Virus record (IMG/VR): IMGVR_UViG_3300047320_000132
Span: 67,101 to 131,100 of that record
Source of the DNA: a virus
Lineage: Duplodnaviria > Heunggongvirae > Uroviricota > Caudoviricetes
Direction: 5' to 3' (one strand)
Length of the DNA: 64,000 nucleotides
Under the pieces are notes generated by a model. That model was not told the origin of the DNA and made no database searches. It worked only from the letters and a program-made list of their open reading frames with translations. A program made the translations under genes and the position numbers. Positions within the stretch are counted from its first letter, which is position 1; each line of letters opens with the position of its first letter. Below are positions 28,021-51,298 of this stretch, in pieces.

Positions 28021-28029
28021 AGTTTCAAT

Positions 28030-28155: not shown

Positions 28156-28230
28156 GGCTCCATCGTATAGTGATTATTACACTCCCCTGTCCAGGGAGAT
28201 ATCGGAGTTTGATTCTCCGTGGGGTCGCCA
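28156..28230 (+). tRNA. tRNA-Asp (GTC), non-canonical D- and T-loops
   Basis: Anticodon stem CTCCC/GGGAG, loop CTGTCCA. T-arm CGGAG-TTTGATT-CTCCG. The D-loop lacks GG. CCA encoded. Confidence 0.6.
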
Positions 28231-28702: not shown

Positions 28703-28780
28703 GCCCGTATAGCTCAGTTGGTAGTAGCACTCGCCTTGTAAGCGAGAGGTCACTGGTTCGAATCCTAGTTACGGGCACCA
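28703..28780 (+). tRNA. tRNA-Thr (TGT)
   Basis: Perfect acceptor GCCCGTA/TACGGGC. Anticodon stem CTCGC/GCGAG, loop CTTGTAA. The T-arm register is ambiguous (one extra nt or one mismatch). Confidence 0.6.
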
Positions 28781-28787
28781 GTATTTC

Positions 28788-28863
28788 CCCCAGGTAGCTC
28801 AGTTGGTAGAGCGGCATGTTGAAGCCTTGCGCGTCGGAGGTTCGAGTCCTTCTCTGGGGACCA
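28788..28863 (+). tRNA. tRNA-Phe (GAA)
   Basis: 76 nt with standard numbering. Anticodon loop TTGAAGC. T-arm GGAGG-TTCGAGT-CCTTC. CCA encoded. Confidence 0.65.
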
Positions 28864-28873
28864 GTTTAACAAT

Positions 28874-28951
28874 CGCGGAGTAGAGCAGCCCGGTAGCTCA
28901 GCAGGCTCATAACCTGAAGGTCGGTGGGTTCAAATCCCCCCTCCGCAACCA
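28874..28951 (+). tRNA. initiator-like tRNA-fMet (CAT) with C1-A72 mismatch
   Basis: CGCGGAGTAGAGCAGCCCGGTAGCTC...GGCTCATAACC...TTCAAATCC...CTCCGCAACCA is very close to E. coli tRNA-fMet and includes the unpaired C1-A72 end that marks initiator tRNAs. Confidence 0.7.
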
Positions 28952-28956
28952 AACAA

Positions 28957-29032
28957 CGGAACTTAGCTCAGTTGGTAGAGCCTCGGATTTACATTCCGAA
29001 TGTCACAGGTTCGACCCCTGTAGTTCCGACCA
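28957..29032 (+). tRNA. tRNA-Val (TAC)
   Basis: Perfect acceptor CGGAACT/AGTTCCG. Canonical D-arm. Anticodon stem TCGGA/TCCGA, loop TTTACAT. CCA encoded. Confidence 0.75.
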
Positions 29033-29049
29033 TTAATAACGAGGTAGAC

Positions 29050-29256
29050 ATGGCAACCGATAGTAAAGAAATCGTTCGTGTATTCCGCAGTTACAAAAAA
29101 GAGAATGGTTGGCCGATGGCTCACGAAGCTGCTAACCTAATCGAGAAGTTAGAGAAAGAAGTAGCAGATTTGAAGATTGGTATTGAAGTTCTCTGCAAAC
29201 AACTAGGTGAAGCTAATCATAATCACCTTGCATATCTAGTCGATCAACTTAAATAG
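29050..29256 (+). CDS. hypothetical protein
   Basis: 69 aa from the Met after tRNA-Val. The longer track ORF overlaps three tRNAs. Ends with TAG. Confidence 0.4.
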   Translation: MATDSKEIVRVFRSYKKENGWPMAHEAANLIEKLEKEVADLKIGIEVLCKQLGEANHNHLAYLVDQLK

Positions 29257-29261
29257 ATTTA

Positions 29262-29339
29262 CCCTGCTTAGCTCATGTCTGGTAGAGCACTCGACCGATA
29301 ATCGAGAGGTGCCTGGATCGTCGCCAGGAGCAGGGACCA
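29262..29339 (+). tRNA. tRNA-Ile (GAT)
   Basis: Perfect acceptor CCCTGCT/AGCAGGG. Anticodon stem CTCGA/TCGAG, loop CCGATAA, with C at position 33. T-loop ATCGTCG is unusual. CCA encoded. Confidence 0.65.
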
Positions 29340-29475
29340 AACAAAGCAATATGAACCACCTAGAAGAAGAAGCAGCCTGGTGTAGAGCGCAGCTTAAAGA
29401 AATGGTTGGAGACAGGTTGTACAAGTGTAGTTGCTGGATTTTGCATACAGACGAATGTGAAAGAAGGAACAAAGA

Positions 29476-29718
29476 ATGTTTGATCGATCAGAACGCAGAC
29501 ACCACGTCGAAAGGTTAAAAGAAACACGCAAAGCATACGGTTGGCGTAAAGAACCGTTGACACCCAGGCAACTCGGTGCAGTAGTACAACATCCGCAGAT
29601 GTGTTCCTGCTCTGGGTGTGGAAATCCTCGTAGACACAAGTGGTTTAAGAGCGAGTGTTTAACTCTTCAGGAACGTTCACAATTAGAAGCTCTTAAAACT
29701 TACGAGTTTGAAGGGTAA
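29476..29718 (+). CDS. hypothetical basic Cys-containing protein
   Basis: 80 aa with a CSCSGC motif. Confidence 0.35.
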   Translation: MFDRSERRHHVERLKETRKAYGWRKEPLTPRQLGAVVQHPQMCSCSGCGNPRRHKWFKSECLTLQERSQLEALKTYEFEG

Positions 29719-29728
29719 TTTCAACAGT

Positions 29729-29806
29729 CCGAGTGTAGGCTAGCCAGATTAAGTCGTCTGCTTTGGGAGCAGAAAATCGCAGGTTTGAATCCTGCCACTC
29801 GGACCA
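29729..29806 (+). tRNA. tRNA-Pro (TGG), non-canonical D- and T-loops
   Basis: Acceptor CCGAGTG/CACTCGG. Anticodon stem TCTGC/GCAGA, loop TTTGGGA. T-arm GCAGG-TTTGAAT-CCTGC. The D-loop lacks GG. CCA encoded. Confidence 0.6.
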
Positions 29807-29817
29807 CTCTTTTCACT

Positions 29818-30033
29818 ATGACAACCCTATATCAAATCAAGCTTGTTGTGGATCGTGTTTATCCTGAATACAAAGCCAATAGTGGTTTCATCGATAGTCT
29901 TGACGTCGTAGAAATCGTAATGGCTGTAGAAGATCAACTCAACGTTCAATTCGACGATTACAAACTTGAGAAGTTTCAGGCCGATACTCCGCTGGCGGAT
30001 ATTCCTGAAATTCTTTACGGAGCATTGGTTTAA
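29818..30033 (+). CDS. acpP: Acyl carrier protein
   Basis: 72 aa. SGFIDSLDVVEIVMAVEDQLNVQFDD carries the DSL phosphopantetheine-attachment serine in the usual helix-II context. Start moved to the Met after tRNA-Pro. Confidence 0.6.
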   Translation: MTTLYQIKLVVDRVYPEYKANSGFIDSLDVVEIVMAVEDQLNVQFDDYKLEKFQADTPLADIPEILYGALV

Positions 30034-30090
30034 TGTTTAACGACGCATACTTTCACAATTGGCATAGTAGACCATATAGAGGAAACTACT

Positions 30091-30492
30091 ATGTCACGCA
30101 CTTATCGCCGTCAAAAGGGTTACGTTCCTAAATACGTTATCGATGCGACTGAGCCTCTCAAAGGCCCGGATGCAGAAGACGCTGAACGTCTGACCGATCC
30201 CAAGAACTTCTACCGTGGAAAAATCCCCGGTTGGTACAAGGGTTACGCAAAGGTTAACGGGCAGTGGTTCCGCTACGGAACTAACAAAGCTTTCGGTCAG
30301 CAAATGGCTTTCTGGTTCGGGGATCACGGCTACGCCTGGCGTCGTCTCTACGGAAAGGACACTTGCAAATTTGTCCGAGGGCACACCCAGGTCCAGTACC
30401 GTATGGATGCCAAGTTGGAACTCGACAAGTACCGCAAGAACCCTGATTACGAAGTACAAATTCCCCGCAAGAATCTCTTGCCGTGGGACTGA
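30091..30492 (+). CDS. hypothetical protein
   Basis: 133 aa rich in aromatic and basic residues. Confidence 0.45.
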   Translation: MSRTYRRQKGYVPKYVIDATEPLKGPDAEDAERLTDPKNFYRGKIPGWYKGYAKVNGQWFRYGTNKAFGQQMAFWFGDHGYAWRRLYGKDTCKFVRGHTQVQYRMDAKLELDKYRKNPDYEVQIPRKNLLPWD

Positions 30493-30494
30493 AC

Positions 30495-30525
30495 AACGCC
30501 CAGCTTAGGCTGGGCTTTTTATTTG
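30495..30525 (+). terminator. intrinsic terminator
   Basis: GCCCAGCTTAGGCTGGGC hairpin followed by TTTTTATTT. Confidence 0.6.
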
Positions 30526-30533
30526 GAGAAATC

Positions 30534-31148
30534 ATGAGCTGGAGCATCGCCCTGCTTGAGAATACTGTCGAAGTTTCTGCAAAGATTGCGGAAGAGTTAG
30601 TTAAGGCCCAAAGCTATAAGGGAGAATTCTGGAGCAACGGATTTGAAGTAACTTACAAGGGTAAGCTTTACTTCAACCCCGATCACTCCGAACACATGGA
30701 CTTTTTAACAGACGAAAAGTTACTGGAAGTACTGACGAAGAACAAGGTTGAAGGCAGGATCTGTTTCGCTTCGCTTGAAGGCGACAACAGAGGTGAATTT
30801 TGGGGCTATGAATTTGATGGCAAAGGCGCAGTGCATGCGCTTGTAGGCTCCCTTGTATTTCAGCGTAAAATTGTCGAGCCGGAAATCCAATTTCCAAAAG
30901 AATACGTCCTGGTTAAAACCTCACGAGTATACTACGGTGGTCCAGTCCGAGAACCACACCTACCGGTTACCTCTTTGGACGTGGCTATAGCCCTTGCACG
31001 GGGCTCGGTTAATCCAGTTGGGTACGATGTATATGAACTGGTTCCCCGAGGCACTGAAGCCCTGCATCCAGTTTGGAGATATGCCGATCGTGCTTCATAT
31101 AAACAGGCAGTAGATCAGATTGACCCCCTTCATGACGGAGTTGAGTAA
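30534..31148 (+). CDS. hypothetical protein
   Basis: About 204 aa. Start moved to the Met with the GGAGAA RBS, because the track start overlaps a terminator hairpin at 30495-30522. Confidence 0.5.
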   Translation: MSWSIALLENTVEVSAKIAEELVKAQSYKGEFWSNGFEVTYKGKLYFNPDHSEHMDFLTDEKLLEVLTKNKVEGRICFASLEGDNRGEFWGYEFDGKGAVHALVGSLVFQRKIVEPEIQFPKEYVLVKTSRVYYGGPVREPHLPVTSLDVAIALARGSVNPVGYDVYELVPRGTEALHPVWRYADRASYKQAVDQIDPLHDGVE

Positions 31149-31324
31149 TGGAAGTCAAAGTTCAACTTACAACAGAAGAAGTAAAACAGGCTATTAAGAA
31201 TTACGTGAATACACAAGGAATGAGCCTCTCTGTTAAAGAAATACAATTCGGGGACAGAGGTGAAGCTACTGTTACTTGTGAAAAGGCGAAGCACCCAACT
31301 GGTTTTGGAGCATACGATCGATGA
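31148..31324 (+). CDS. hypothetical small protein
   Basis: About 58 aa (MEVKVQLTTEEVKQAIKNYV...). ATGA overlap with the previous gene. Below the ORF-track length cut-off. Confidence 0.3.
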   Translation: MEVKVQLTTEEVKQAIKNYVNTQGMSLSVKEIQFGDRGEATVTCEKAKHPTGFGAYDR

Positions 31325-31424
31325 GCTGGCCTGAAGCTTTCGCAACAGTAGGATGCGCATTTGCGTTCGTAGCGTTTATCTGGATCTTGACACGCTAACT
31401 GTGTTTTATTAAACTAGCAGTATT

Positions 31425-31500
31425 GGGAATATAGCTCAGTTGGCAGAGCAGCGGATTCTAAATCTGAAGGTCTCGGGTTCGAGCCCCGATGTTCCTACCA
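31425..31500 (+). tRNA. tRNA with CUA anticodon (amber suppressor-type). Amino acid identity unresolved.
   Basis: A 76-nt canonical cloverleaf. Acceptor GGGAATA/TGTTCCT. D-arm GCTC-AGTTGGCA-GAGC. Anticodon stem GCGGA/TCTGA, loop TTCTAAA, so positions 34-36 are CTA. Short variable arm. T-arm TCGGG-TTCGAGC-CCCGA. A73. CCA encoded. Confidence 0.55.
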
Positions 31501-31614
31501 AACATTTAAAGGAATTACCATGAAGCTCGATAAGCTCTAGGTTACGAAGCCTCCGTAAGACAACCTTACCTAAAAGCACCGTAGTACCTACACTTTTACT
31601 TAAGGAAATTAATC

Positions 31615-31938
31615 ATGTCTTACATTTATTCAATCATTCGCAAAGATATTCCCCTCGCAGATCAGATCGTTCAGACTGCGCATTCCGCATTTCACGCTGG
31701 CCAAGCCGATCCGAAAAACGGTGCGGCATTAGATTGTGAAATCCCTTCGCTGGTCCTCTTGCAGGTGCCAAACGAAGAAGCCTTGCTTGAGCTTCACAAA
31801 AAACTTAAGGCTGCAGGCATCGTTCACAGCACGTTCCACGAGCCTGACGATGACATGGGTTGGACGTCGATCACGACCGTGTCTATTAATCAGGAAGATC
31901 GTAAGCTCTTTAGTAATTTGCCTTTGTGGAGACCCTAA
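31615..31938 (+). CDS. divergent PTH2-like peptidyl-tRNA hydrolase candidate
   Basis: 107 aa. The N-terminus IYSIIRKDIPLADQIVQTAHSAFHAG parallels the PTH2 motif (vvRxDLxMxxGKxaAQxxHA). The rest of the protein is divergent. Confidence 0.4.
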   Translation: MSYIYSIIRKDIPLADQIVQTAHSAFHAGQADPKNGAALDCEIPSLVLLQVPNEEALLELHKKLKAAGIVHSTFHEPDDDMGWTSITTVSINQEDRKLFSNLPLWRP

Positions 31939-32166
31939 ATGAACGATAGGATTCTTATCTTCTACAATAAGGCGCATAACACTGATACCTCAATACCGCC
32001 GTGGGTCTGCCAATCTAAAGGTCAGACATACAATGTTAATCATATTACAATCGGAAGTGGCATTGGCTTCTCGACCAAGGAGAGGCCCGACCACTCTAGT
32101 ACCAAGGCGTGTCTCGTTGTTAAAGGTACGTTGACGATCAAGGATGGTGAGGCGTTGATAAATTAA
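31939..32166 (+). CDS. hypothetical protein
   Basis: 75 aa. Confidence 0.3.
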   Translation: MNDRILIFYNKAHNTDTSIPPWVCQSKGQTYNVNHITIGSGIGFSTKERPDHSSTKACLVVKGTLTIKDGEALIN

Positions 32167-32212
32167 TCTTTACAACTTTTCTTTAGATGTATGTTTAGAG
32201 TAAAATAGAAAT

Positions 32213-32758
32213 ATGAACTCTGACATACTTCAACCCTTGATAGATATGGGATTGACAGCCAAAGAAATGAGTGAACATCTTGGCTGTTCAATTCATAAAG
32301 TAAAGTACTACATGAAAAAACTGGGTATTAAAACCCAGCTTGCCCAAAAGTACGATTCATACGTTTCGTATGAACAATTAAAAACTAAAATTTGCCGCTC
32401 TTGCAAATTAGAAAAATCTGTTTTTGAATTTAGAAAAGTTGTTATATCTGGTAAAGAAAAACCCGGCTCTTATTGCAAAGCGTGTGTAAAGCAACAAAAC
32501 TATGCAGCTAAAAATAGTATTAAAAAACAGGCCTTAGATTATAAAGGTAATAAATGCCAGTGTTGCGGATACGACAAATATGAAGGCGCTTTAGAATTTC
32601 ATCATTTAGATCCTAAAGAAAAAGACTTTCTTATTTCTAGATACGGACGAGACGCTACTTTAAATGACAAAGATTTATTTACAGAATTAGATAAATGTGC
32701 TTTACTGTGTTCCAATTGTCACCGTGAGGTTCATGCAGGACTCATTAAACTAGATTGA
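32213..32758 (+). CDS. HNH homing endonuclease with N-terminal HTH, paralog of the gene at 41978
   Basis: 181 aa. GNKCQCCGYDKYEGALEFHHLDPKEKDF...LLCSNCHREVH is near-identical in its C-terminal half to the 41978 protein. Confidence 0.75.
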   Translation: MNSDILQPLIDMGLTAKEMSEHLGCSIHKVKYYMKKLGIKTQLAQKYDSYVSYEQLKTKICRSCKLEKSVFEFRKVVISGKEKPGSYCKACVKQQNYAAKNSIKKQALDYKGNKCQCCGYDKYEGALEFHHLDPKEKDFLISRYGRDATLNDKDLFTELDKCALLCSNCHREVHAGLIKLD

Positions 32759-32760
32759 GT

Positions 32761-32770
32761 TTGGTATAAG
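32761..32770 (+). promoter_or_regulatory. TTGGTATAAG promoter motif upstream of the tRNA-like elements and the AAA+ gene
   Basis: TTGGTATAAGAGAATTGTG. Confidence 0.45.
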
Positions 32771-32798
32771 AGAATTGTGAAAGAACATTTCTTTTATA

Positions 32799-32868
32799 AA
32801 CAAAATAGCTCAATTGGTAGAGCGCACATACTCTTGTGAGGCTGGGGGCTCGTATCCCCCTTTTGTTA
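32799..32868 (+). ncRNA. tRNA-like element (pseudo-tRNA?) with canonical acceptor and D-arm but a defective anticodon arm
   Basis: Acceptor AACAAAA/TTTTGTT. D-arm TA-GCTC-AATTGGTA-GAGC. T-arm GGGGG-CTCGTAT-CCCCC. The anticodon region does not form a standard 5-bp, 7-nt stem-loop. Lies 28 nt downstream of a TTGGTATAAG promoter. Confidence 0.35.
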
Positions 32869-32884
32869 GCTTAGTAAACTTCTT

Positions 32885-32968
32885 GGGCGTGACACCGTGC
32901 GCTGGCAGGTAACGGCCTCATAAGCCGTCGGAGAAATCCCATCGTGGGTTGGAATCCCACCGCGCCCA
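32885..32968 (+). ncRNA. tRNA-like element with CAT anticodon loop, long variable arm and an over-extended terminal stem
   Basis: Acceptor GGGCGTG/CGCGCCC. Anticodon stem ACGGC/GCCGT, loop CTCATAA. 15-nt variable arm. T-arm GTGGG-TTGGAAT-CCCAC. The terminal helix extends to 13 bp (AACTTCTTGGGCG/CGCCCAAGAAGTT), which is not tRNA-like. Confidence 0.35.
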
Positions 32969-33052
32969 AGAAGTTTATTGAGAAGCTTTATAACCACCCC
33001 TCTGAAGTCTAGAGGGGTTTTTCTTTGCAGCACTTTTTGTAGCCTAATCGAT

Positions 33053-35116
33053 ATGGAAACGAAGGAAATCAACGTGAGTGACATTCAAGAACAAATCGCG
33101 GAATCGAATGCAGGCGCTGCTATTGGCGAAGTTGCCAAGGCTGATGTACCCGCTGTCGCTCCGGAAGTCGCTGCGGCGGCTGCACAAGCTGCAATGATCG
33201 CAGAAGTGGTCAAGGCTGCTCTCGAAAACGCCGGTCTTGGCAAGACGGATCCGATCGCAGAAATCGCGGCGATCTCGATCAGCAGCGACGAAATGCCTGT
33301 CGCTTCCCGTCCGATTGCAGAAGTGATTCCGGGCCGTACTGGACAGATCAAGGTTTATGTTCCGTATGACATTCGTGCGGACATGAACAACTATGGTCGT
33401 GTCATCGGCAGCCGTATGAACACGTCCACGAACGAGTTCAACTACATCAACAACCCGGCACAGTTCAACGTTGCTCGTGGCGCGGGTATGGTTGGCGGTC
33501 TGGAAATCTTCAAGAACCGTTCGAACATCGAATCGTACCTGAACAACCTGGACGACTACAACGACGATCAGGACTTCATCGAACGTGTTCGTTCGCAGAT
33601 GACCCGTATCCTCGAAGAAGTGAATGCGTTCTACGCAAACACTCTCGGCAATATCAGCAATCTGTCGGTCAACAACGAGTTCACGTATGACGAACTCGCC
33701 GTTCTCCTGGCTCAGCCTGGCATCAAGCTGGTTGTCGAAGACGACTTCGCCCTGGTTTGTGTTACGACTCACGCTGCAAGTCAGCAGATGAGCATGAGCG
33801 GCCCGTACATCGCTGCAGCTGGGCATATGTACGCACGTAACGGTCAGGAAATTCAGCAATTCACGCATCAGTACTACTTCGGTGGTTACGACGGCAAGAA
33901 GAGCCTGAAGGAACTGGGCATCACGCCGTTGGAATCGGATGCTGAACTCAAAGCCCGTCTCCTCGCTCGTGGCAAGCGCGGTGTCGAAGTTACGGCTTCG
34001 TCGTCGTACATGCAGTACAAGGGCGATCTGGTTCGTCGCGGCTACTGGAGCAACACGGCTTTCCGTTCGACGGGTCGTGTCATGATCGACTTCCAGGCAA
34101 TGCGTATCATGGATCCGAACTACCGCAAGTTCTTTGGCGGAACTCAGGATCGTGACTCGTACGGCTACACGGCCAAGGCTGAAACGGTGAAGCTGAGCGA
34201 TGACGTGTATCTGACGTTCTCGCCGTATGTTTATGGCTTCTCGTTCCTGTCGAAGGTCTGGGGTGAAATGCTGGTCGACAACATCACTCCGATTCAGTTC
34301 CGTACGGATGCTTACGGCAAGCTGGTGATGGACGAAGATCAGAAGGAAATGATCGTGTCGCTGGTGGAAACCCAGCTGGAAGGCAAGAAGGTCGACATCA
34401 TCGATGGCAAGGGTGGTGGCACGATTTTCCTGCTGGCCGGTGAACCGGGTACTGGCAAGACGCTTACTGCTGAAGTTACGGCAGAGCATCTGAAGCGTCC
34501 GCTGTACATGGTTGGCGTTGGCGAACTCGGGACGAGTGCCAGCGAGCTGGAAGACAATCTGCGTCAGGTTCTGGATATCGCCGCGACGTGGAATGCAGTG
34601 CTCCTGCTTGACGAATGCGACATCTTCATGGAAGCCCGTACGGATAGCAATATCCAACGGAATGCTATGGTCGGTGTTTTCCTGCGTCTGCTGGAATACT
34701 ATCAAGGCGTTCTGTTCCTGACGTCGAACCGTGCAAGCAACATCGACAAGGCGTTCTACTCCCGTATCAGCATGGCGATTAACTTCCCTGCGCTGACTAC
34801 TGGTGACCGTGTTCAAATTTGGGAGAACAACCTCAATATGAATTCGGTGCAACTCACCGCGACGGAAATTCTTTACCTTGCCGAAACCTACGAGATCAAT
34901 GGTCGTCAGATCAAGACGGCTACTCGCAACGCTTCGGCTCTGGCACTGAAAGGCAAGCGTCCGACGGACATCAAGGACTTCCAACTGATCCTCAACAAGG
35001 GTCTGGAATTCCAGAAGGCGGTGTTCGAACGTGGTGGCAAAAACGACATGACGTTGCTGGGCATGCACAAGGATGCTCACGTCGTTGCTGACGTCGAGTT
35101 CAAAGACGTTAAGTAA
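33053..35116 (+). CDS. Large AAA+ ATPase with an approximately 450-aa N-terminal domain of unknown function
   Basis: Walker A GEPGTGKTLTA. Walker B VLLLDECDIF. Sensor-1 LFLTSNRASNID. Arg finger region FYSRIS. Codons are visibly GC-rich compared with the flanking genes. Start moved to METKEIN. Confidence 0.75.
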   Translation: METKEINVSDIQEQIAESNAGAAIGEVAKADVPAVAPEVAAAAAQAAMIAEVVKAALENAGLGKTDPIAEIAAISISSDEMPVASRPIAEVIPGRTGQIKVYVPYDIRADMNNYGRVIGSRMNTSTNEFNYINNPAQFNVARGAGMVGGLEIFKNRSNIESYLNNLDDYNDDQDFIERVRSQMTRILEEVNAFYANTLGNISNLSVNNEFTYDELAVLLAQPGIKLVVEDDFALVCVTTHAASQQMSMSGPYIAAAGHMYARNGQEIQQFTHQYYFGGYDGKKSLKELGITPLESDAELKARLLARGKRGVEVTASSSYMQYKGDLVRRGYWSNTAFRSTGRVMIDFQAMRIMDPNYRKFFGGTQDRDSYGYTAKAETVKLSDDVYLTFSPYVYGFSFLSKVWGEMLVDNITPIQFRTDAYGKLVMDEDQKEMIVSLVETQLEGKKVDIIDGKGGGTIFLLAGEPGTGKTLTAEVTAEHLKRPLYMVGVGELGTSASELEDNLRQVLDIAATWNAVLLLDECDIFMEARTDSNIQRNAMVGVFLRLLEYYQGVLFLTSNRASNIDKAFYSRISMAINFPALTTGDRVQIWENNLNMNSVQLTATEILYLAETYEINGRQIKTATRNASALALKGKRPTDIKDFQLILNKGLEFQKAVFERGGKNDMTLLGMHKDAHVVADVEFKDVK

Positions 35117-36034: not shown

Positions 36035-36235
36035 ATGAAGAAAATCGCAGCAGTTGCCTACGGGATTTTGGCAACGCTCTATCTGTTGTTCCTGCTGTTG
36101 CCCGTAACACAGCAGTTGGTTAATAATGGAGGCGACCTGATTTACTTCGTGCCGCTGCTGTGGTTGACCATCCCGCTAATCGCCTTTGGCGGTTGGTATT
36201 TCTTCCTCAAACCAAAGAAACAAAAAACACAATGA
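36035..36235 (+). CDS. small membrane protein
   Basis: 66 aa with two TM helices. ATGA overlap with the SPFH gene. Confidence 0.4.
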   Translation: MKKIAAVAYGILATLYLLFLLLPVTQQLVNNGGDLIYFVPLLWLTIPLIAFGGWYFFLKPKKQKTQ

Positions 36236-37077
36236 AGAAACTTCTTCTTATCGTCGTTGTATTCATGCTCGGTGCCTGTACCAAGGTTGGCGCAGGCTTC
36301 GTCGGTGTTCAGGTGGATAACTACGGCAGTGACCGTGGCGTCCAGAACAAGGTTCTCGGCCCGGGTTCGTACTTCACCGGCTGGAACACGACTGTGTACG
36401 AGTATCCGACGTTCACGGAAAACTACGTGTACAGCAAGGCTCCGGAAGAAGGTCATCCGGCCGACGAGTCGATCACGTTCCAGGCAAAGGGTGGCGTTGC
36501 CATCAATGCTGACTTCGGTGTTGCGTATCACATCGCTGCAGACAGTGCTCCGCTTGTGTTCCAGAAGTACCACAAGGATCTGAACGGTATTACCGACGGT
36601 CCTTTGCGTAACCTTATCCGTGACAGTCTTAACGAAATCGCGGGTAAGCTTACCTTCGAGCAGATCAGCAATGACATTCCGGCCTTCATGGTTGCTGTTA
36701 ACGCTGAACTCGCCAAGCGTGCAGCACCTAGCGGGTTGTCGGTTGAACTGCTCTCGAACGTAGGCGCATTCCGTTGGCCTCCTGCGATTCAGGATTCCAT
36801 CAATGCTCAGCAACAGGCAAAGATGGACGCTATCACGTCGCAGAACCAGCTGCAGAAAACCCAGGCAGATGCTGCAAAGCGTATTGCCAATTCGGATGCC
36901 GACCTGAAGATCGCTGCAAACGAAGCACAAGCTACGGCTATTCGTGGTCAGGCACTGGCCAAGAACCCGGAGATTCTGCAACAAATGTGGATCGAAAAGT
37001 GGAACGGTCAACTTCCGACGTATCAACTCGGCAGTGGCAGTTCGGCTCTTATCCAGCTTCCGAAAATGGGTAACTGA
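36232..37077 (+). CDS. SPFH/band-7 (prohibitin/HflKC-like) lipoprotein
   Basis: Lipoprotein signal MKKLLLIVVVFMLGAC. SPFH core around ITFQAKGGVAINADFGVAYHI. A C-terminal coiled-coil Q/A-rich region is typical of flotillin/HflK-like proteins. Confidence 0.7.
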   Translation: MKKLLLIVVVFMLGACTKVGAGFVGVQVDNYGSDRGVQNKVLGPGSYFTGWNTTVYEYPTFTENYVYSKAPEEGHPADESITFQAKGGVAINADFGVAYHIAADSAPLVFQKYHKDLNGITDGPLRNLIRDSLNEIAGKLTFEQISNDIPAFMVAVNAELAKRAAPSGLSVELLSNVGAFRWPPAIQDSINAQQQAKMDAITSQNQLQKTQADAAKRIANSDADLKIAANEAQATAIRGQALAKNPEILQQMWIEKWNGQLPTYQLGSGSSALIQLPKMGN

Positions 37078-38674: not shown

Positions 38675-39205
38675 ATGAAAGAAGAGCGTCAGACACCTTT
38701 GGTTTCGATTAACCCTAAAGACCTACGCATCGACTGTTATGGCGGTGCCGTAGGTGGTCAAAGAGTAGGAATGGCTAATGGTGTGAGAATCACGCACATC
38801 CCTAGCGGTATTGTGACCGAATGCATTACAGAACGCAGTCAACACAAGAACAGAAACGCGGCCTTGAAAGAACTCGAAGAGCTAGTCTATGTGTGGGAAG
38901 GTTCCAAAGTATCGGAGCCTCATCCTGACGATTTCGCAGTAGACAAGTTCGCAGCCATGATGAAAGCGAAGCTTGCAAAGTCTCGTGAGAAGGGTAGAAG
39001 CGGTTGGGATGATCCAGAACAATGCAGTACAAAACGATTAGCGAATCTTCTTGTCAGCCATGTCCCCAAAGGGGATCCCGTAGACATTGCAAATCTGGCA
39101 ATGATGCTGGCGCTAAGAGAAGCCGACCCGGCATTGCTAAAAGACGCCTTTGAAGGCGAAGCTATGGCCATGATGGAACGGGAAGGCTGGTCTTCTGGAG
39201 GCTAA
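38675..39205 (+). CDS. GGQ-motif peptidyl-tRNA hydrolase domain protein (class I release factor-like; ArfB/PrfH-like)
   Basis: 176 aa. [48 protein letters not shown] is the RF-1 catalytic domain signature (GGQ plus the ERSQ..N block). The C-terminal half is unrelated. Confidence 0.65.
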
Positions 39206-39219: not shown

Positions 39220-39229
39220 TTTGGTATAA
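39220..39229 (+). promoter_or_regulatory. TTGGTATAAG promoter motif upstream of the tandem paralog array
   Basis: TTTTGGTATAAGAGAGTTGTATAAG. Confidence 0.45.
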
Positions 39230-39384
39230 GAGAGTTGTATAAGAAGTAGCCTTTAATTCTGCATCTCTCTTTTTTGGTTGGTCAAAATGCGTCGCCGTAA
39301 TACCCTTAAATTCGCAGGCTACGTCATGTGTGTCGTAGTTGGATTCACCTGCGTTCTACTAACAGCAAAACTCGGAGTAACGAA

Positions 39385-39801
39385 ATGAACAACGAAATCA
39401 AACAGGAATGGATCTCTGCTCTGCGTAGCGGCGAATACAAACAAGCCAAACATGTCTTGAACGGTGACGGCGGCATGTGTTGTCTTGGCGTTCTCTGTGA
39501 TCTTTACATGAAGAAAACTGGAGAAGGTGAATGGGTGCCGAGAACCGCTAAGGAGGAAGATAGCAGGGTTTTGCAAAAGTATACTTCCATTGGTACATTT
39601 GAAGGGTCAGAAGTTGTACCTCCTGCTAGTGTTATGAAATGGGCCGATCTCGACAAGGAAAATCCCAATACTGGAATTTACCAGGGATTTACAAAGTCCT
39701 TTGAAGATACCCCTGGCTACTTGGGGTATTCTTTGGCCGAACTCAACGACGGTGGGCTTACCTTCAACCAGATTGCTGACGTTATTCAATTCACGCTATG
39801 A
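39385..39801 (+). CDS. tandem paralog 1 of a five-gene family of short acidic proteins
   Basis: Conserved N-terminus MNNEIKQEWISALRSGEYKQ...GMCCLGVLCDLY and conserved C-terminus LNDGGLTFNQIADVIQ, with a variable middle. Preceded by a 33-aa membrane mini-ORF with an ATGA overlap. Confidence 0.6.
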   Translation: MNNEIKQEWISALRSGEYKQAKHVLNGDGGMCCLGVLCDLYMKKTGEGEWVPRTAKEEDSRVLQKYTSIGTFEGSEVVPPASVMKWADLDKENPNTGIYQGFTKSFEDTPGYLGYSLAELNDGGLTFNQIADVIQFTL

Positions 39802-40151
39802 ACCAAGAAATCAAAGCAAAGTGGGTAGCTGCGCTTCGCAGCGGTGAGTACAAACAGAGCGTCGGCTACTTGAAAAGAGACGATGGGTTCTGTTGCCTCG
39901 GAGTCCTTTCCGATGTTCACGCAAAGGAAGGAGGTCCGCAATGGGAACATGCTGGCTCTGGGATTCAAGAGGTTGAACGCTGTGGGGGGTATCCCCCTCA
40001 AGTAACTCTTAATTGGGCTGAATTCGCAGAAACTTCTCTCGTTCCTGGTTTGCTTACCAGAGAAGGGGATGGGGAAGGCTTGGTAAGCCTGAACGACTCC
40101 GGTGAATTCACCTTTTCTCAAATCGCTGACGTTATCGAGTACTTCTTCTAA
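39798..40151 (+). CDS. tandem paralog 2
   Basis: MNQEIKAKWVAALRSGEYKQ...GFCCLGVLSDVH...LNDSGEFTFSQIADVIEYFF. ATGA overlap. Confidence 0.6.
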   Translation: MNQEIKAKWVAALRSGEYKQSVGYLKRDDGFCCLGVLSDVHAKEGGPQWEHAGSGIQEVERCGGYPPQVTLNWAEFAETSLVPGLLTREGDGEGLVSLNDSGEFTFSQIADVIEYFF

Positions 40152-40501
40152 TGAACCAAGAAATCAAAGCCAAGTGGGTAGCTGCGCTTCGCAGCGGAGA
40201 ATATGTCCAAGGTCAACGATACCTGAATGGTCCCGATGGATTTTGTTGTCTGGGTGTTTTATGTGATCTATACGGTAAAGAAACTGGAGAAAAATGGTTC
40301 GATGAAGGAGGTGACGGAAAACGCATGCTGGACGGCTGGACTGTTCCTCCGCTACAAGTCCAGAAGTGGGCGGATCTTGGTAGTGATCTCGGATACACCG
40401 GCGTAGAAACTCCGGCTACTGACTCTGTTTCGCTTGTCGATCTAAATGACTCTGGTCTGCCTTTCTCTCAAATCGCTGACATCATCCAATACGCACTGTG
40501 A
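40151..40501 (+). CDS. tandem paralog 3
   Basis: MNQEIKAKWVAALRSGEYVQ...GFCCLGVLCDLY...LNDSGLPFSQIADIIQYAL. ATGA overlap. Confidence 0.6.
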   Translation: MNQEIKAKWVAALRSGEYVQGQRYLNGPDGFCCLGVLCDLYGKETGEKWFDEGGDGKRMLDGWTVPPLQVQKWADLGSDLGYTGVETPATDSVSLVDLNDSGLPFSQIADIIQYAL

Positions 40502-40854
40502 ACAACGAAGTTAAAGCCAAATGGGTAGCCGCTCTTCGGAGCGGTGAATACAAACAGGGAACAACTAGACTCAAGACTGTTTGGGATGAAGAAAATCCGA
40601 AGTTTTGCTGTCTTGGAGTTCTCTGTGATTTGCATGACAAGGAACTCAACTGCGAACAATCGTTTGAAAGCATCGCAGGAGAATTACCTGATCATGTAAA
40701 AAAGTGGGCGGGTTTGGAAGAAAACAACCCGTACATGCGTCAACCAGCTTCGCTTGCTTATCCGAAAGAATGGAGAACTCATATTTCTGTTCTTAACGAC
40801 ATCAAGCAATTTTCTTTCAACCAACTAGCTGATCTCATCGAAGCACAACTATGA
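40498..40854 (+). CDS. tandem paralog 4
   Basis: MNNEVKAKWVAALRSGEYKQ...KFCCLGVLCDLH...LNDIKQFSFNQLADLIEAQL. ATGA overlap. Confidence 0.6.
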   Translation: MNNEVKAKWVAALRSGEYKQGTTRLKTVWDEENPKFCCLGVLCDLHDKELNCEQSFESIAGELPDHVKKWAGLEENNPYMRQPASLAYPKEWRTHISVLNDIKQFSFNQLADLIEAQL

Positions 40855-41219
40855 AAAAGCGTATCAAGAACAAATGGATCAAGGCACTGCGCGGCGGTGA
40901 TTACAAACAGACTACGGGTGCGTTGCGTGACGACGAAGGTTTCTGTTGCCTCGGCGTTCTATGCAACATCCATGCTCAGGAACATCCTGAAGTTGCGGCG
41001 AAAGAACCCTGGCCAGACGAATATATGGGCGCTAGTGGCTTGCTTCCCCTGGCGGTAGCTGAATGGGCTGGACTCAATCCTTCTGTTTTGGACTCGGCTG
41101 ATGTACCGACCGATGTCAAAGTCACGTATCGTGGGAAAGAAACTAAGCTTTCTACGTTGAACGACACTGACCAACTCAGCTTCAAGAAGATCGCCCGAGT
41201 CATTGACCGCTGTTTGTAA
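40851..41219 (+). CDS. tandem paralog 5 (most divergent)
   Basis: MKKRIKNKWIKALRGGDYKQ...GFCCLGVLCNIH...LNDTDQLSFKKIARVIDRCL. Confidence 0.55.
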   Translation: MKKRIKNKWIKALRGGDYKQTTGALRDDEGFCCLGVLCNIHAQEHPEVAAKEPWPDEYMGASGLLPLAVAEWAGLNPSVLDSADVPTDVKVTYRGKETKLSTLNDTDQLSFKKIARVIDRCL

Positions 41220-41247
41220 GCCTGTAATTCAATTACGTACGTACGAC

Positions 41248-41257
41248 TTGGTATAAG
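41248..41257 (+). promoter_or_regulatory. TTGGTATAAG promoter motif upstream of the His/Ala-rich secreted protein gene
   Basis: CTTGGTATAAGTTAATTAGG. Confidence 0.45.
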
Positions 41258-41331: not shown

Positions 41332-41610
41332 ATGAAAAACTTGATGCTCGCTGCTGCTGCAATGGTTATCGCAACGTCCGCTATGGCTTATGGCGTTTCC
41401 GGTGGCCACGCTTCTGCTGGTCATGTTTCCGTTTCGGCTCACTCGGCACCTTCGGTTCACACCGCAGTTGTTGAAGCCCACACTGCTCCGGTTGCTCACG
41501 AGGCACCCGTCGCAAAGGCTCCCATAGCCAAGACCCCGGTTATCGTGCCGGTCGGTCATGTTTCCGCAGCAAAGCCTGTAAGCGGCGCTTCTGCCGTGAA
41601 GGGTAAGTAA
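41332..41610 (+). CDS. secreted His/Ala/Val-rich repetitive small protein
   Basis: 92 aa. Signal peptide MKNLMLAAAAMVIATSAMA, then low-complexity repeats (HASAGHVSVSAHSAPSVHTAVVEAHTAPVAHEAPVAKAP). Confidence 0.5.
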   Translation: MKNLMLAAAAMVIATSAMAYGVSGGHASAGHVSVSAHSAPSVHTAVVEAHTAPVAHEAPVAKAPIAKTPVIVPVGHVSAAKPVSGASAVKGK

Positions 41611-41977: not shown

Positions 41978-42502
41978 ATGACAAAACAAGAACTTGAACA
42001 GATGACTAAAGAAGGATGGTCAACTAGAAAAATCGCGGCCCATTTTGGAGTTAGCCAATCTAGTATCAGATACCATCTTTATAAACACGATCTTAAAACA
42101 TCGACTTTTTCATATTTAAAAGTTGAAGGGAAACCTGATTGGAGAAGATGCTCTACTTGCAAACTTGAATTTCCTATTACGGAATTTCAAAAAATAAAAA
42201 ATACAGAACGATATAGAACTTCGTGTAAAAGTTGTATTTCAAATCACTTAAAGGAAATAAGAGTAAATACTAAAAGTTCGGCAGTTGAATATAAAGGCGG
42301 TAAATGCCAACTGTGTGGATACAATAAATCTCATGCTGCCTTAGAGTTTCACCACAGAGATCCTAAAGAGAAAGATTTTGGAATTGCCAAACAATGGTAT
42401 AGAAAATTAGATGATATTTTGAAGAGAGAATTAGATAAATGTGATTTGCTTTGTTCAAATTGTCATCGAGAAGTGCATGAGCAGTTAAACACAACCAAGT
42501 AG
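41978..42502 (+). CDS. HNH homing endonuclease with N-terminal HTH, paralog of the gene at 32213
   Basis: 174 aa. GGKCQLCGYNKSHAALEFHHRDPKEKDF...LLCSNCHREVH. Confidence 0.75.
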   Translation: MTKQELEQMTKEGWSTRKIAAHFGVSQSSIRYHLYKHDLKTSTFSYLKVEGKPDWRRCSTCKLEFPITEFQKIKNTERYRTSCKSCISNHLKEIRVNTKSSAVEYKGGKCQLCGYNKSHAALEFHHRDPKEKDFGIAKQWYRKLDDILKRELDKCDLLCSNCHREVHEQLNTTK

Positions 42503-44068: not shown

Positions 44069-44148
44069 GGGATCGTAGCTCAGCCTGGTTCAAGAGCATT
44101 CGACTTTTAATCGAATGGTCGTTGGTTCAAATCCAACCGGTCCTACCA
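44069..44148 (+). tRNA. tRNA-Lys (TTT)
   Basis: Anticodon stem TTCGA/TCGAA, loop CTTTTAA. T-arm GTTGG-TTCAAAT-CCAAC. CCA encoded. A TGTATAAT -10 lies upstream. Confidence 0.7.
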
Positions 44149-44150
44149 AC

Positions 44151-44229
44151 AGGTCAGTAGTGACAATTGGCTTAACACGCAGGACTCCAAATCCTTGAGA
44201 TTGCGGTTCGAATCCGTACTGACTTGCCA
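44151..44229 (+). tRNA. tRNA-Trp (CCA)
   Basis: Acceptor AGGTCAG/CTGACTT. Anticodon loop CTCCAAA. T-arm TGCGG-TTCGAAT-CCGTA. CCA encoded. Starts 2 nt after tRNA-Lys. Confidence 0.6.
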
Positions 44230-44249
44230 TATTAATAACAGGAGTAATC

Positions 44250-44462
44250 ATGGACGAACACGTTCTGCCAGTAGTGAAACATGAGTTTCCGCTGCAAGTC
44301 GTAATCGGTAGCGAAGTGGTGACTTTCAATTCGCCGGAAGAAATCCCTGCCGGTGCGCAGTTCAAGATTTACGTGAAACCCGAACCTGAGGTTGTGAAGG
44401 CAGTGCCGAAGATCATCAATACCGGCAAAGCTCGCACCTGGAACAACAACGCAGTGGATTAA
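44250..44462 (+). CDS. hypothetical protein
   Basis: 70 aa. Confidence 0.4.
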   Translation: MDEHVLPVVKHEFPLQVVIGSEVVTFNSPEEIPAGAQFKIYVKPEPEVVKAVPKIINTGKARTWNNNAVD

Positions 44463-44474
44463 GGAGTAGTTGAG

Positions 44475-44873
44475 ATGATGCACGGAAATGGACAACGTTC
44501 GGTTACGGTCGATCGCCTGAAGCTGATCGAAAAACTGAAGTCCAACCTTGAAATTCACATCAAGGACTACGAAGAAGCAAAGATCGGTTACAAGATCAAA
44601 CTGAAGCAGGATCTTGAAGATGCTCTGGAATTCTTCGACGAAAGGCCGTACGAACAGCTTCCCAAGCTCATCGTCCAGAACAATCCTCCGCGTAGCTACG
44701 AGAAGGAATACCTCGATGCTATCACGCTGCTCGAATGGCAAGTCGGCGATACGGTGGAACTGGACCAGACGACGTTCAAGCAATTCGTTCAGAACGAGTG
44801 GGCGTGGAGCGGCGGGTTCGAAGCGATGAACACGACCTATAAGAGCTTCGCAGCAAGCGCCGCTCGTCGTTAA
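44475..44873 (+). CDS. hypothetical protein
   Basis: 132 aa. Confidence 0.45.
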   Translation: MMHGNGQRSVTVDRLKLIEKLKSNLEIHIKDYEEAKIGYKIKLKQDLEDALEFFDERPYEQLPKLIVQNNPPRSYEKEYLDAITLLEWQVGDTVELDQTTFKQFVQNEWAWSGGFEAMNTTYKSFAASAARR

Positions 44874-44985
44874 CAAGTTTCAGTGCGGGTTTGGTATAGA
44901 TGAATGTGCAGCGGTTTTCCAAACCGACGAGACGAGTTTGATACTCGTAGCCCGCTCAAAGTATCTAAGGTAGAAAGTTCTTAGA

Positions 44986-45059
44986 GCCACTGTAGGATAA
45001 TGGATTAATCTCCGGAGCTTCTACCTCCGTTTATGCGAGTTCGACCCTCGCCGGTGGCT
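44986..45059 (+). tRNA. tRNA-Arg (TCT)
   Basis: Acceptor GCCACTG/CGGTGGC. D-arm GGAT-AATGGATTA-ATCT. Anticodon stem CGGAG/CTCCG, loop CTTCTAC. T-arm GCGAG-TTCGACC-CTCGC. No CCA encoded. Confidence 0.6.
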
Positions 45060-45356
45060 CTAAGTTCTTTCCCAGGAGTAACATTTTGGAAACCAATCAT
45101 GAAACTCAGAGCAATCTTCCTGTTTGTAGTAACGATGATGACGATGGCCTCGTGCGCAACACAGCCGAGCCCCGCGTATTACGCAAAGGATTCTTTCTTG
45201 CATGGCGTCTCAGCGACAACGAATTAGACCTCCCCGACGAGAAGGTTTGAACGAGGTTCTTGTCTCCAAAGCTAAGGGCGGCGGAGAGCATAAGAACCGT
45301 AAAGACAAACGAACGTATAAGCGTAAGCTTGACAAAGAGTCAAAGGAAGAGTTGGA

Positions 45357-49900: not shown

Positions 49901-51298
49901 ATGTCAAACTTCAAAATTAATCCGTTACTTAACGTCGATAGTTATAAAAATTCTCATTTCTTGCAATACCCACAAGGCACTTCTGCCCTGTACTCATACG
50001 TGGAAGCACGCAAGGACAACAGCGGGTTTGGGATCAAGAACTCAACGTTCTTCGGTCTCCAGGGTTTCATCAAAGACCACTTGCTCAACGCAATCACGGC
50101 TGAGCATGTCGAGTACGCAATGAAGGTCAATTCTATTCACGGTGAGCCCTTCGCTAAGAAGGAATTTGATCGCCTGGTGAAAGTGCATGGAGGTCATGCT
50201 CCGATGGTGATCCGTGCAGTCCCGGAAGGTCTGCAAGTTCCGATGTCGAATGTGCTGGTCGATGTAATGTCTACTGACGAAGAAATGCCTTGGATCGGTT
50301 CGTTCTTCGAAACCCAGATCCTTCGTGCAGCGTGGTTTGGTACTACGGTAGCTTCCATTTCGAGGCACTGTAAAGAGATCATCTTCAAGTACCTTGTCGA
50401 TACGTGCGATAGGCCGCTCGACGAAATGCCCTTCAAGCTTCATGACTTCGGTGCCCGTGGCGCAAGCTCTACGGAGACTTCTGCAATTGCTGGCGCAGCG
50501 CATCTGATCAATTTTATGGGTACAGACACCATGCTTGGCATGGAGTATGCACATCAATTCTACGGAGCTGACTACAATGGCCTGGGTTATTCTATTCCCG
50601 CTGCTGAGCATTCCACTATTACTAGTTGGGGGCGTACGCACGAAGCTGACGCTTATAGAAATATGTGCGAAAAATTCGGCCAAGGCCTATTCGCTGTTGT
50701 CAGTGATAGCTACGATATCTTTAACGCTGTTAAAAATATCTGGGGCGGAGAGCTTCGTGACTTTGTCCTGGCCCAACCTGGTACTCTTGTGGTTCGTCCA
50801 GATTCTGGTGAACCTGTATCTGTCGTTTCTACGGTGGTCGGGCTACTGGCCGATGCGTTCGGTTACAGTGTTAACTCGAAAGGCTTTAAGGTCCTGAACA
50901 AGGTCCGTGTCATTCAAGGTGATGGTGTAAACCCTGAAAGCATCGAGAAAATTCTTGCTGCTCTTAAGTTGGCTGGATTCAGCGCCGAGAACGTTGCATT
51001 CGGCATGGGCGGGGCGTTGCATCAGAAGTTGGATCGTGATACGCTTTCGTTTGCAATGAAGGCTTCGTCTGTCTGTGTTGATGGCAAGTGGCTTGACGTA
51101 TACAAGAATCCTATTGCTGGCGGTAAAACCAGCAAGCGCGGACATCTTGCACTAGTCGAAGATAATGACGGAGTGTTGACCACGATTCGTCGTGAAAATG
51201 CTATGGGTCGTGTAGATCTGTTGGAACCTGTATATGCGAATGGTGTTTTGATTCGTGACCAGTCTTTTAGCGATATTCGTCGCAACGCAGCAATCTAA
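49901..51298 (+). CDS. nadV: Nicotinamide phosphoribosyltransferase
   Basis: 465 aa. The N-terminal NPLLNVDSYKNSHF matches the conserved NadV/Nampt start. Length and overall pattern fit Nampt. Confidence 0.8.
   Translation: MSNFKINPLLNVDSYKNSHFLQYPQGTSALYSYVEARKDNSGFGIKNSTFFGLQGFIKDHLLNAITAEHVEYAMKVNSIHGEPFAKKEFDRLVKVHGGHAPMVIRAVPEGLQVPMSNVLVDVMSTDEEMPWIGSFFETQILRAAWFGTTVASISRHCKEIIFKYLVDTCDRPLDEMPFKLHDFGARGASSTETSAIAGAAHLINFMGTDTMLGMEYAHQFYGADYNGLGYSIPAAEHSTITSWGRTHEADAYRNMCEKFGQGLFAVVSDSYDIFNAVKNIWGGELRDFVLAQPGTLVVRPDSGEPVSVVSTVVGLLADAFGYSVNSKGFKVLNKVRVIQGDGVNPESIEKILAALKLAGFSAENVAFGMGGALHQKLDRDTLSFAMKASSVCVDGKWLDVYKNPIAGGKTSKRGHLALVEDNDGVLTTIRRENAMGRVDLLEPVYANGVLIRDQSFSDIRRNAAI

Follow-up and report, generated by a model that had tools for sequence, protein, structure and literature searches.

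Anti-CRISPR (acr) loci are built from unrelated genes together with a helix-turn-helix (HTH) regulator, Aca, and polyimmunity loci consist of tandem, diversified paralogs of the immunity proteins that belong to polymorphic-toxin systems. Viral gene accordions, such as that of poxvirus K3L, hold near-identical and transient copies. Here we describe a tandem array of five paralogous genes in a 64,000-nucleotide (nt) stretch of Caudoviricetes DNA (positions 67,101 to 131,100 of the IMG/VR record IMGVR_UViG_3300047320_000132; hereafter the window), which originates from a large lytic-type phage. The five genes are members of a catalogued, uncharacterised family, Pfam PF26948/DUF8296, which corresponds to PHROG 18067, and they are translationally chained to the gene of a 33-residue membrane micro-protein in a single operon. 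The genes themselves are new members of a catalogued family, and their arrangement in an array with a membrane micro-gene constitutes a clade-specific elaboration.

The array shares with PF26948/PHROG 18067 the single-domain architecture of about 115 residues and the invariant motifs. Compared with the family at large, in which 72% of the sampled loci are single-copy, the clade of the window carries arrays of 4-8 copies and the membrane micro-gene. Like acr-aca and other anti-defence clusters, the array encodes small cytoplasmic proteins in a short, separately promoted early operon, its gene content varies between near-identical phages, and its neighbours are of the counter-defence type. Unlike acr-aca loci, all genes of the array are paralogs of one fold, and the operon contains only the small transmembrane (TM) gene and the five DUF8296 genes without any HTH gene; the nearest HTH is found in an HNH endonuclease gene (41978-42502), behind another promoter motif. 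The array also resembles polyimmunity loci (SUKH/Imm) in its tandem, small and non-enzymatic-looking paralogs with a conserved scaffold, variable surfaces and lineage-specific expansions. However, it has no adjacent toxin gene, it resides in a phage, and its proteins have no similarity to the Pfam Imm/SUKH models. The hallmarks of a polymorphic-toxin immunity array were not found, and the neighbours of the phage loci are replication and accessory genes. From operon anatomy and genomic context only, we infer that the array might encode a co-expressed panel, built on one scaffold, of proteins that bind host factors or act as binders in counter-defence, a tentative reading that we hold with somewhat less than even confidence. 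The first-pass annotation of this DNA, made from the letters alone, had also proposed an array of binding proteins. From that proposal, a scaffold with variable loops, the phage-borne nature and an operon of its own were retained, whereas hypervariability, diversifying selection and DNA mimicry were not supported, for the reasons given below.

Membership of the five genes in DUF8296 is supported by several searches. All five copies match phrog_18067 at full length (positions 1-126/129) with E values between 3.6e-18 and 1.5e-23, and their five-way alignment contains 25 invariant columns; the homology among the copies is far above chance. PF26948 is the precomputed assignment for copy 3, for its listed homologs and for all six array genes of a near-identical relative, L002. 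A homology search returned 1,761 matches at E<=1e-3, and 120 of the 120 listed matches are precomputed as PF26948. A profile search of 1.84 billion representatives retrieved 45,500 clusters (50% identity) with E<=1e-3, of which 32,678 reached E<=1e-10. The family, which had not been recognised in the first-pass annotation, is therefore catalogued in Pfam and PHROG, where both entries are of unknown function. Its distribution supports an overwhelmingly phage-borne family: there are at least 539 relatives on viral contigs in IMG/VR, and on the cellular side 56 loci in 185,579 species genomes, spread across many phyla. Among cultured phages, about 9 distinct carriers were found in 50,697 phage records, in which the annotation is always 'hypothetical protein'; Alteromonas phage AD45-P1 and Ralstonia phage RSP15 are two isolates with a member of the family.

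The window copies have 116-138 residues and the listed family members 104-139, in agreement with the size expected for a single domain (about 105-140 residues). Some matches of the profile search are fused forms with two or three DUF8296 domains (P0121, P0122, P0123, P0124, P0145, P0147 and P0168), and one DUF8296 protein, P0211, bears in-frame N-terminal TM segments. Apart from these fused and TM-bearing exceptions, the proteins of the family are single-domain proteins.

Homology to a characterised family, which the first-pass annotation had named as evidence that would speak against its reading, was looked for and not found. Scans of the five copies with NCBIfam, PADLOC and a Pfam copy that does not contain PF26948 gave nothing meaningful, PADLOC covering defence systems and not anti-defence proteins. 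A Pfam match of copy 1 to ATS3 (E 0.0045; 17 bits, below the cutoff of 27) was judged spurious. Likewise, a Pfam scan of 109 alignment members at E<=1 produced no consistent family and no immunity families, a sequence-profile search of the PDB produced no match at E<=10, and a structure search of BFVD returned uncharacterised family members only. A megablast comparison of the region with cultured phages was negative. We found no papers on PF26948, DUF8296 or phrog_18067, and literature searches on tandem paralogs and anti-defence in general brought up nothing directly relevant.

The plus strand from 39221 to 41257 is occupied, in order, by a promoter-like motif, a 56-nt leader, a small open reading frame (mini-ORF), the five DUF8296 ORFs and the next copy of the motif (Table 1). 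This arrangement demonstrates a single operon composed of the host-type promoter-like motif, the leader, the 33-residue micro-protein gene and five coupled DUF8296 paralogs. The five consecutive same-strand genes of 116-138 residues that the first-pass annotation had delineated were confirmed at 39385-41219, and the ATGA overlaps by which it had them chained proved essentially right. At each junction the stop codon overlaps the next start: ATGA joins the mini-ORF to gene 1, gene 1 to gene 2 and gene 4 to gene 5, TAATGA (1-nt overlap) joins genes 2 and 3, and GTGA joins genes 3 and 4. The GGAG Shine-Dalgarno sequence of the first DUF8296 gene is located within the mini-ORF.

Table 1. Features of the DUF8296 operon in the window (aa, amino acids; pI, isoelectric point; AF2, AlphaFold2).
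Feature	Coordinates	Strand	Remarks
Promoter-like motif TTGGTATAAG	39221..39230	+	heads the operon; resembles an extended -10
Leader between motif and mini-ORF	39231..39286	+	near-invariant in relatives
Single-pass membrane mini-gene, 33 aa, MRRRNTLKFAGYVMCVVVGFTCVLLTAKLGVTK	39287..39388	+	ATGA overlap with DUF8296 gene 1
DUF8296 paralog 1, 138 aa, pI 4.7	39385..39801	+	phrog_18067 E 1.7e-23
DUF8296 paralog 2, 117 aa, pI 4.5	39798..40151	+	phrog_18067 E 3.6e-18
DUF8296 paralog 3, 116 aa, pI 4.3	40151..40501	+	phrog_18067 E 1.5e-23; modelled with AF2
DUF8296 paralog 4, 118 aa, GTG start, pI 5.4	40498..40854	+	phrog_18067 E 9.4e-23
DUF8296 paralog 5, 122 aa, pI 7.6	40851..41219	+	phrog_18067 E 2.7e-23; modelled with AF2
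Next TTGGTATAAG motif	41248..41257	+	downstream boundary of the transcription unit; precedes the 92-aa ORF 41332-41610

The own promoter that the first-pass annotation had ascribed to the array is supported by the motif TTGGTATAAG, which occurs at 39221 and again at 41248. In the window, the motif has 11 exact sites (3981, 6023, 13779, 24299, 32761, 37278, 39221, 41248, 45689, 52509 and 54411) and 18 sites with at most one mismatch, against 3.1 expected; they lie on the plus strand only and fall in intergenic positions. It is also present at the matching relative position upstream of the arrays in L002 and in three further members of the clade, L004, L005 and L007. By comparison with the extended -10 consensus, TGnTATAAT, the sites are probably the extended -10-type promoters of this phage for its replication and accessory region. 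Because the motif heads the array and its next copy follows at 41248, the array is considered a transcription unit of its own. The motif and about 55 nt of leader are near-invariant in the window, L004, L005 and L007, while the flanking proteins there are 36-70% identical. The leader reads GAGAGTTGTATAAGAAGTAGC.TTTAATTCT.CA.CTCTCTTTTTTGG, and it holds TGTATAAG a second time as well as an inverted repeat, AGAGAG/CTCTCT. A structured RNA was considered for the leader and dismissed, because the predicted fold was no better than that of shuffled sequences (z -0.9).

The mini-ORF in front of the array, noticed already in the first-pass annotation, is a genuine gene, although its ATG is at 39287 and not at 39288. 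It encodes 33 residues with one clear hydrophobic span, and its equivalents have 33 residues in L004 and 31 in L005 and L007, in which the hydrophobic core is kept while the sequence has diverged. Since position, near-constant length and hydrophobicity are all retained in the relatives despite the divergence, we regard the mini-ORF as a real gene. As a general trait of the family it was rejected: only 11 of 140 arrays have a TM mini-gene in front, against a background of 2.1% at random positions, and this clade accounts for 4 of them.

To examine the architecture of the paralogs, AlphaFold2 models of copies 3 and 5 were built with a 109-sequence alignment. The model of copy 3 has a predicted local distance difference test score (pLDDT) of 92.0 and a predicted template modelling score (pTM) of 0.87, with helices at residues 3-15, 33-45, 68-74, 95-100 and 105-115 and small hairpins; the model of copy 5 (pLDDT 92.2, pTM 0.87) has the same core helices. 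Each paralog is thus predicted to be a compact, cytoplasmic five-helix domain of about 115 residues with small beta-hairpins. The variable region VR1 is predicted to be a hairpin in copy 3 and a short helix in copy 5, and VR2 of copy 5 to be a beta-hairpin. The two independent high-confidence models support the view that one confidently predicted scaffold bears structurally different loop inserts in different copies. A fold comparison with the PDB found no match to any solved protein.

The same division into scaffold and loops is visible in the conservation profile calculated from an alignment of 203 unique family members. Near-invariant positions are W9, A12, L13, R14, S15, G16, Y18, Q20, L25, C32, C33, L34, G35, V36 and L37, followed by L67/P68/V71/W74, N98, D99, F104, A108 and I111, whereas positions 21-30, 45-66 and 78-93 are high in entropy and rich in indels. 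These three loops vary among the copies in length, in sequence and even in secondary structure. In the 109-sequence alignment, W9, L13, Q20, C32, C33, L34, G35, V36, L37, W73, N99, D100 and F105 are invariant, and all of these signature residues are found in the five window copies. The invariant motifs of the family are W..ALRSG.Y.Q, CCLGVL and LND....F..IA..I. According to the first-pass annotation, conserved ends enclose a middle that differs completely between copies. Variable segments are indeed present, but a conserved helix, P..V..W-A, splits the middle into two of them (P80, W86 and A87 are invariant in the five copies), and a third variable loop lies inside the N-terminal block at residues 21-30. 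Conserved ends with a variable middle are a trait of the whole family and not a peculiarity of the array in the window.

The near-invariant polar set comprises, in the numbering of copy 3, R14, S15, G16, Y18, Q20, C32, C33, N99 and D100. Q20, C32, C33 and the Asn and Asp residues are kept in all five copies, copy 5 has Gly in place of S15, and the adjacent invariant Cys-Cys pair sits at the start of helix 2. The pattern of conservation suggests that the invariant polar residues and the Cys-Cys pair may form a common functional site, a candidate surface pocket. Such a site could also be expected if DUF8296 were a small enzyme or a 'sponge'-type binder of a small molecule, metal or nucleotide, with R14, S15, Q20, C32, C33, N99 and D100 as its site; the loops would then be weakly constrained surface decoration, and arrays would raise the dose or widen the range of ligands. 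This explanation, which we consider rather unlikely, draws on the recurrence of the near-invariant polar residues and Cys-Cys across the 203 unique members, the 109-sequence alignment and all five copies, and on the prevalence of single-copy loci. The fused forms with two or three domains resemble pseudo-oligomers, and known small sponge proteins act as oligomers. Yet neither the Pfam, NCBIfam and PADLOC models nor PDB sequences show any similarity, no fold match was obtained, there is no conserved His or classic catalytic triad, and C38 is replaceable, being Ser or Thr in several copies. The loops are moreover under purifying selection within orthogroups (see below) and hence are not free decoration.

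Next to the conserved site, the history of the array bears on its interpretation. The five copies are 36-55% identical to one another. L002 is 99.4% identical to the window over the 5.8 kb left of the array and has six copies where the window has five. Three window copies (1, 2 and 5) match their L002 counterparts at 100% identity, copy 4 does so at 94% and copy 3 at 80%, and the window lacks one of the L002 copies. In the clade, the arrays have 4, 5, 6, 6 and 8 copies, of which 4, 6 and 8 are those of the more distant relatives. Copy 1 corresponds to the first L002 copy and has an ortholog, L004_2, with 59% identity. For copy 2, the counterpart of the second L002 copy, no clear ortholog exists among the copies of L004, L005 and L007, and copy 3 likewise has none in these three phages. 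The orthogroup of copy 4 is represented in every array of the clade (L002_5, L004_3, L005_5 and L007_4), as is that of copy 5 (W_5, L002_6, L004_4, L005_8 and L007_6), which is always the last gene of the array. Copy gain and loss are located in the middle of the array. In a tree of all copies, clustering follows the orthogroup and not the genome, indicating that the duplications are old; the copies are old paralogs that have been kept under purifying selection. The comparison of copy number among relatives proposed in the first-pass annotation yielded 4-8 copies, with gain and loss, and stable, old orthogroups.

Selection was assessed by pairwise Nei-Gojobori ratios of non-synonymous to synonymous substitutions (dN/dS), in which dS was often saturated and whose pairwise averages could miss a few positively selected sites. 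In the core, dN/dS is 0.08-0.14, but 0.34 for the closest pair, where changes are few. Loop values are 0.2-0.55 for most pairs; the closest pair gives 0, and one distant, saturated pair 0.98. Neither variable nor core segments of the ortholog pairs compared had dN/dS >1. Orthologs of the array are 55-79% identical to those in L004, and the neighbouring genes are 44-98% identical in that comparison. As the array orthologs fall within the range of the neighbouring genes, they have not evolved unusually fast. Ongoing diversifying selection is not supported for the array.

Copy 3 deserves separate consideration because it is a mosaic relative to the fourth L002 copy: identity is 57-77% over nt 46-240 but 90-97% over nt 250-351. 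Divergence at its synonymous sites equals that elsewhere, which favours recombination over selection on point mutations as the cause. A chimera of L002 copy 3 (N terminus) and L002 copy 4 was rejected as its origin, since in a base-by-base alignment the shared part does not extend beyond the first 47 nt and is common to both L002 copies. The first 45-47 nt are identical, synonymous sites included, in copies 2 and 3 of the window and in copies 3 and 4 of L002. It is plausible that these identical 5' ends served as a substrate for the recombination behind the copy gain and loss between the window and L002.

The first-pass annotation had read the array as a cassette under ongoing diversifying (positive) selection, that is, an arms-race effector array with a hypervariable core. 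Several observations are compatible with such a cassette: the loops change 2-5 times faster than the core at non-synonymous sites in most pairs, the N-terminal two-thirds of copy 3 are only 57-77% identical to the ortholog between flanks of about 99-100%, copies are gained and lost within near-identical genomes, and independent expansions occur elsewhere. However, the lack of any dN/dS >1, the equal divergence of copy 3 at synonymous sites and the stable orthogroups of ancient paralogs, whose orthologs are as similar as neighbouring genes, together with the family-wide occurrence of the pattern, make this explanation quite improbable, and we did not retain the claim. Nor does the window hold a template repeat or a copy of the variable parts of the kind used by diversity-generating retroelements (DGRs). 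Although DGR target proteins also combine a conserved scaffold with localised variable regions, the variable regions of the array differ by indels and whole-segment replacement and not by adenine-specific substitution. A blastn search of the 64-kb window with the array found only the conserved blocks of the paralogs and no DGR template repeat, whereas the search for a reverse transcriptase was not exhaustive.

Tandem expansion is not restricted to this clade. Of 134 dereplicated loci, 96 (72%) are single-copy, 22 carry two copies and 16 at least three, and further phage contigs likewise hold arrays of 3-4 copies. In several unrelated lineages, each copy has its nearest relative in its own locus (6 of 6 in L114, 5 of 5 in L127, 3 of 3 in L092 and 3 of 3 in L077), indicating independent tandem expansions. 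A different kind of duplication was seen in Dulcicalothrix desertica PCC 7102 (L133, 3679-6310), where a cassette of four genes (about 119, 118, 94 and 106-111 residues) is duplicated in tandem; its first gene is a DUF8296 member, so the duplicated unit is multi-gene and not a single gene. With viral gene accordions, the array of the window shares a copy number that differs between close relatives, and unequal crossover could proceed through the identical 5' ends of adjacent copies. Unlike accordion copies, however, those of the array are only 36-55% identical to one another and persist as orthogroups in diverged phages.

The mostly acidic nature of the paralogs had raised the possibility of DNA mimicry. 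Mild acidity was borne out for copies 1-4 (pI 4.3-5.4, Asp plus Glu about 15%), but not for copy 5 with its pI of 7.6. As acidic DNA mimics similar to Ocr/ArdA, the proteins would block restriction or other DNA-binding defence proteins, and the low pI of four of the five copies and the early/accessory gene context are in line with this function, Ocr and ArdA being likewise small, early and mostly acidic. The acidity of the array proteins is, however, much weaker: Asp plus Glu reach only about 15%, the net charge is modest (-4 to -9), and one copy is neutral to basic, the other copy-5 orthologs having pI values of 5.7-8.3. Neither the very high negative charge nor the known fold of a mimic was found. 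The predicted fold is compact, globular and different from that of Ocr/ArdA, it has no match to a solved DNA mimic or any other PDB entry, and the invariant residues are not acidic arrays. We therefore regard the DNA mimic suggested in the first-pass annotation as very improbable indeed.

We also considered that the five products, perhaps with the membrane micro-protein, might be non-redundant subunits of one hetero-oligomeric complex. The stop/start overlap at all junctions suggests coupled, roughly equimolar synthesis, and the last two subunits are fixed in order and identity across the clade. Covalently fused homologs with two or three domains, P0211 with its in-frame TM segments and the conservation of the mini-TM gene at the head of the operon would fit such a complex as well. 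A fixed stoichiometry is nevertheless hard to reconcile with 4-8 copies among close relatives and one copy in 72% of loci, with the missing orthologs of copies 2 and 3 in L004, L005 and L007, or with a TM mini-ORF before so few arrays, four of them from this clade. This makes a hetero-oligomer of fixed subunits an improbable explanation.

Returning to the panel of binders, we propose the following mechanism. The five proteins would be made together, early or mid-infection, and the paralogs would act as a panel of stoichiometric binders that share one scaffold. The conserved polar site would serve a common task, namely contact with one kind of partner or ligand, or with each other, and the loops would give each copy its own specificity. 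In this way the phage could cover several variants of host factors, with host takeover or counter-defence as the most plausible purpose, and the membrane micro-protein may tether or accompany the paralogs. The fused polypeptides with two or three domains and the one membrane-anchored N terminus suggest that the copies work side by side, sometimes at the membrane, and the recurrent independent tandem expansion fits a panel of binders. In a bolder form, which we consider possible though doubtful, DUF8296 would be an unrecognised fold and among the largest uncharacterised phage counter-defence/host-takeover families, in which a shared host target or signalling molecule is bound at the conserved Cys-Cys/Asn-Asp site, three exchangeable loops set the specificity, and recurrently expanded, co-translated arrays, here with a membrane micro-protein, cover several host variants.

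Several points weigh against a panel of binders. Searches of sequence, fold and literature revealed no characterised homolog or structural analogue. The polar cluster with its Cys-Cys pair would equally fit an enzyme, metal or small-ligand site with the loops as decoration, and one surface site formed by the conserved polar residues is itself a candidate. The purifying selection on the loops and the orthologs that evolve no faster than their neighbours speak against an active arms race. With 72% of the dereplicated loci being single-copy, function does not require a panel. Finally, clustering the neighbours of 83 loci revealed no universal partner gene; a helicase-like gene is found in 21 loci, all from one phage group.

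DUF8296 is abundant in environmental phages and nearly absent from cultured ones, and it has a confidently predicted fold without a solved relative. The arrays provide a natural experiment, as each operon holds 5-8 variants of one scaffold with orthologs in sister phages, and are a practical entry point to the function of the family. If a counter-defence or host-takeover module were true, tens of thousands of environmental phage genes would be annotated at once. If a small enzyme or sponge were true, the invariant Cys-Cys/Asn-Asp site would represent a new motif.

The window encodes a primase, a split PolA, ribonucleotide reductase, a polynucleotide-kinase/phosphatase/RNA-ligase-like protein, an AAA protease, ThyX, nicotinamide phosphoribosyltransferase (NAMPT) and 22 tRNAs, and the array is flanked by a gene with an RF-1 domain and the HNH endonuclease gene. 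In other genomes, the neighbours of DUF8296 genes include RNA ligase, DNA polymerase B/RecA/DnaB, rIIB, Macro, MazG, a NinI-like phosphatase and even a capsid gene, and DUF8296 genes are always located among small early or accessory genes. RNA ligase genes adjoin the DUF8296 arrays in L142 and L143. In Alteromonas phage AD45-P1, a single DUF8296 gene lies in a similar SPFH/ThyX/HNH neighbourhood. Ten ORFs adjoining DUF8296 genes at five cellular loci had hardly any Pfam or PHROG matches, namely an FMN oxidoreductase and one PHROG without an assigned function, and so provided no basis for a prophage or toxin context.

Directly upstream of the array (38675-39205, plus strand), a 176-residue protein contains an N-terminal RF-1 domain at residues 10-75 (PF00472, E 3.8e-15), which is of the ArfB/peptidyl-tRNA-hydrolase type, and a C-terminal phage-specific domain, phrog_8298; the protein is retained throughout the clade, with no more than 45-53% identity in L004, L005 and L007. 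The ORF right after the array (41332-41610, plus strand) encodes 92 residues with an N-terminal signal-like hydrophobic segment and a body of low-complexity repeats (A, V, H, S, P; HASAGHVSVSAHSAPSVHTAVVEAHTAPVAHEAPVAKAP), and is 97% identical in L002 and weakly kept in L004 (47%). A few kilobases upstream of the array on the plus strand are an AAA+ ATPase/protease-like gene (32978-35116; PF00004, phrog_29662) and a Band_7/SPFH gene (36160-37077). The pairing of an AAA+ protease with SPFH recalls FtsH-HflK/C.

Further away, an 807-residue protein (15168-17591, plus strand) combines regions similar to polynucleotide kinase, NinI-like phosphatase and RNA ligase, which suggests RNA or tRNA repair, and NAMPT, an enzyme of NAD salvage, is encoded at 49901-51298 (plus strand). 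RNA or tRNA repair and NAD salvage are functions of the counter-defence type. All 22 tRNA genes are on the plus strand, at 24351-32969 and 44069-45060. Among them, the tRNA at 31425-31500 (plus strand) has a CTA anticodon of the amber-suppressor type and is labelled tRNA-Pyl by ARAGORN, which may be a sign that TAG is read through or recoded in this phage. The family A DNA polymerase is apparently split into two plus-strand ORFs, 7102-8361 and 8976-10679, that match phrog_17 positions 464-782 and 792-1247, and a 212-residue ORF (8345-8983) sits between them.

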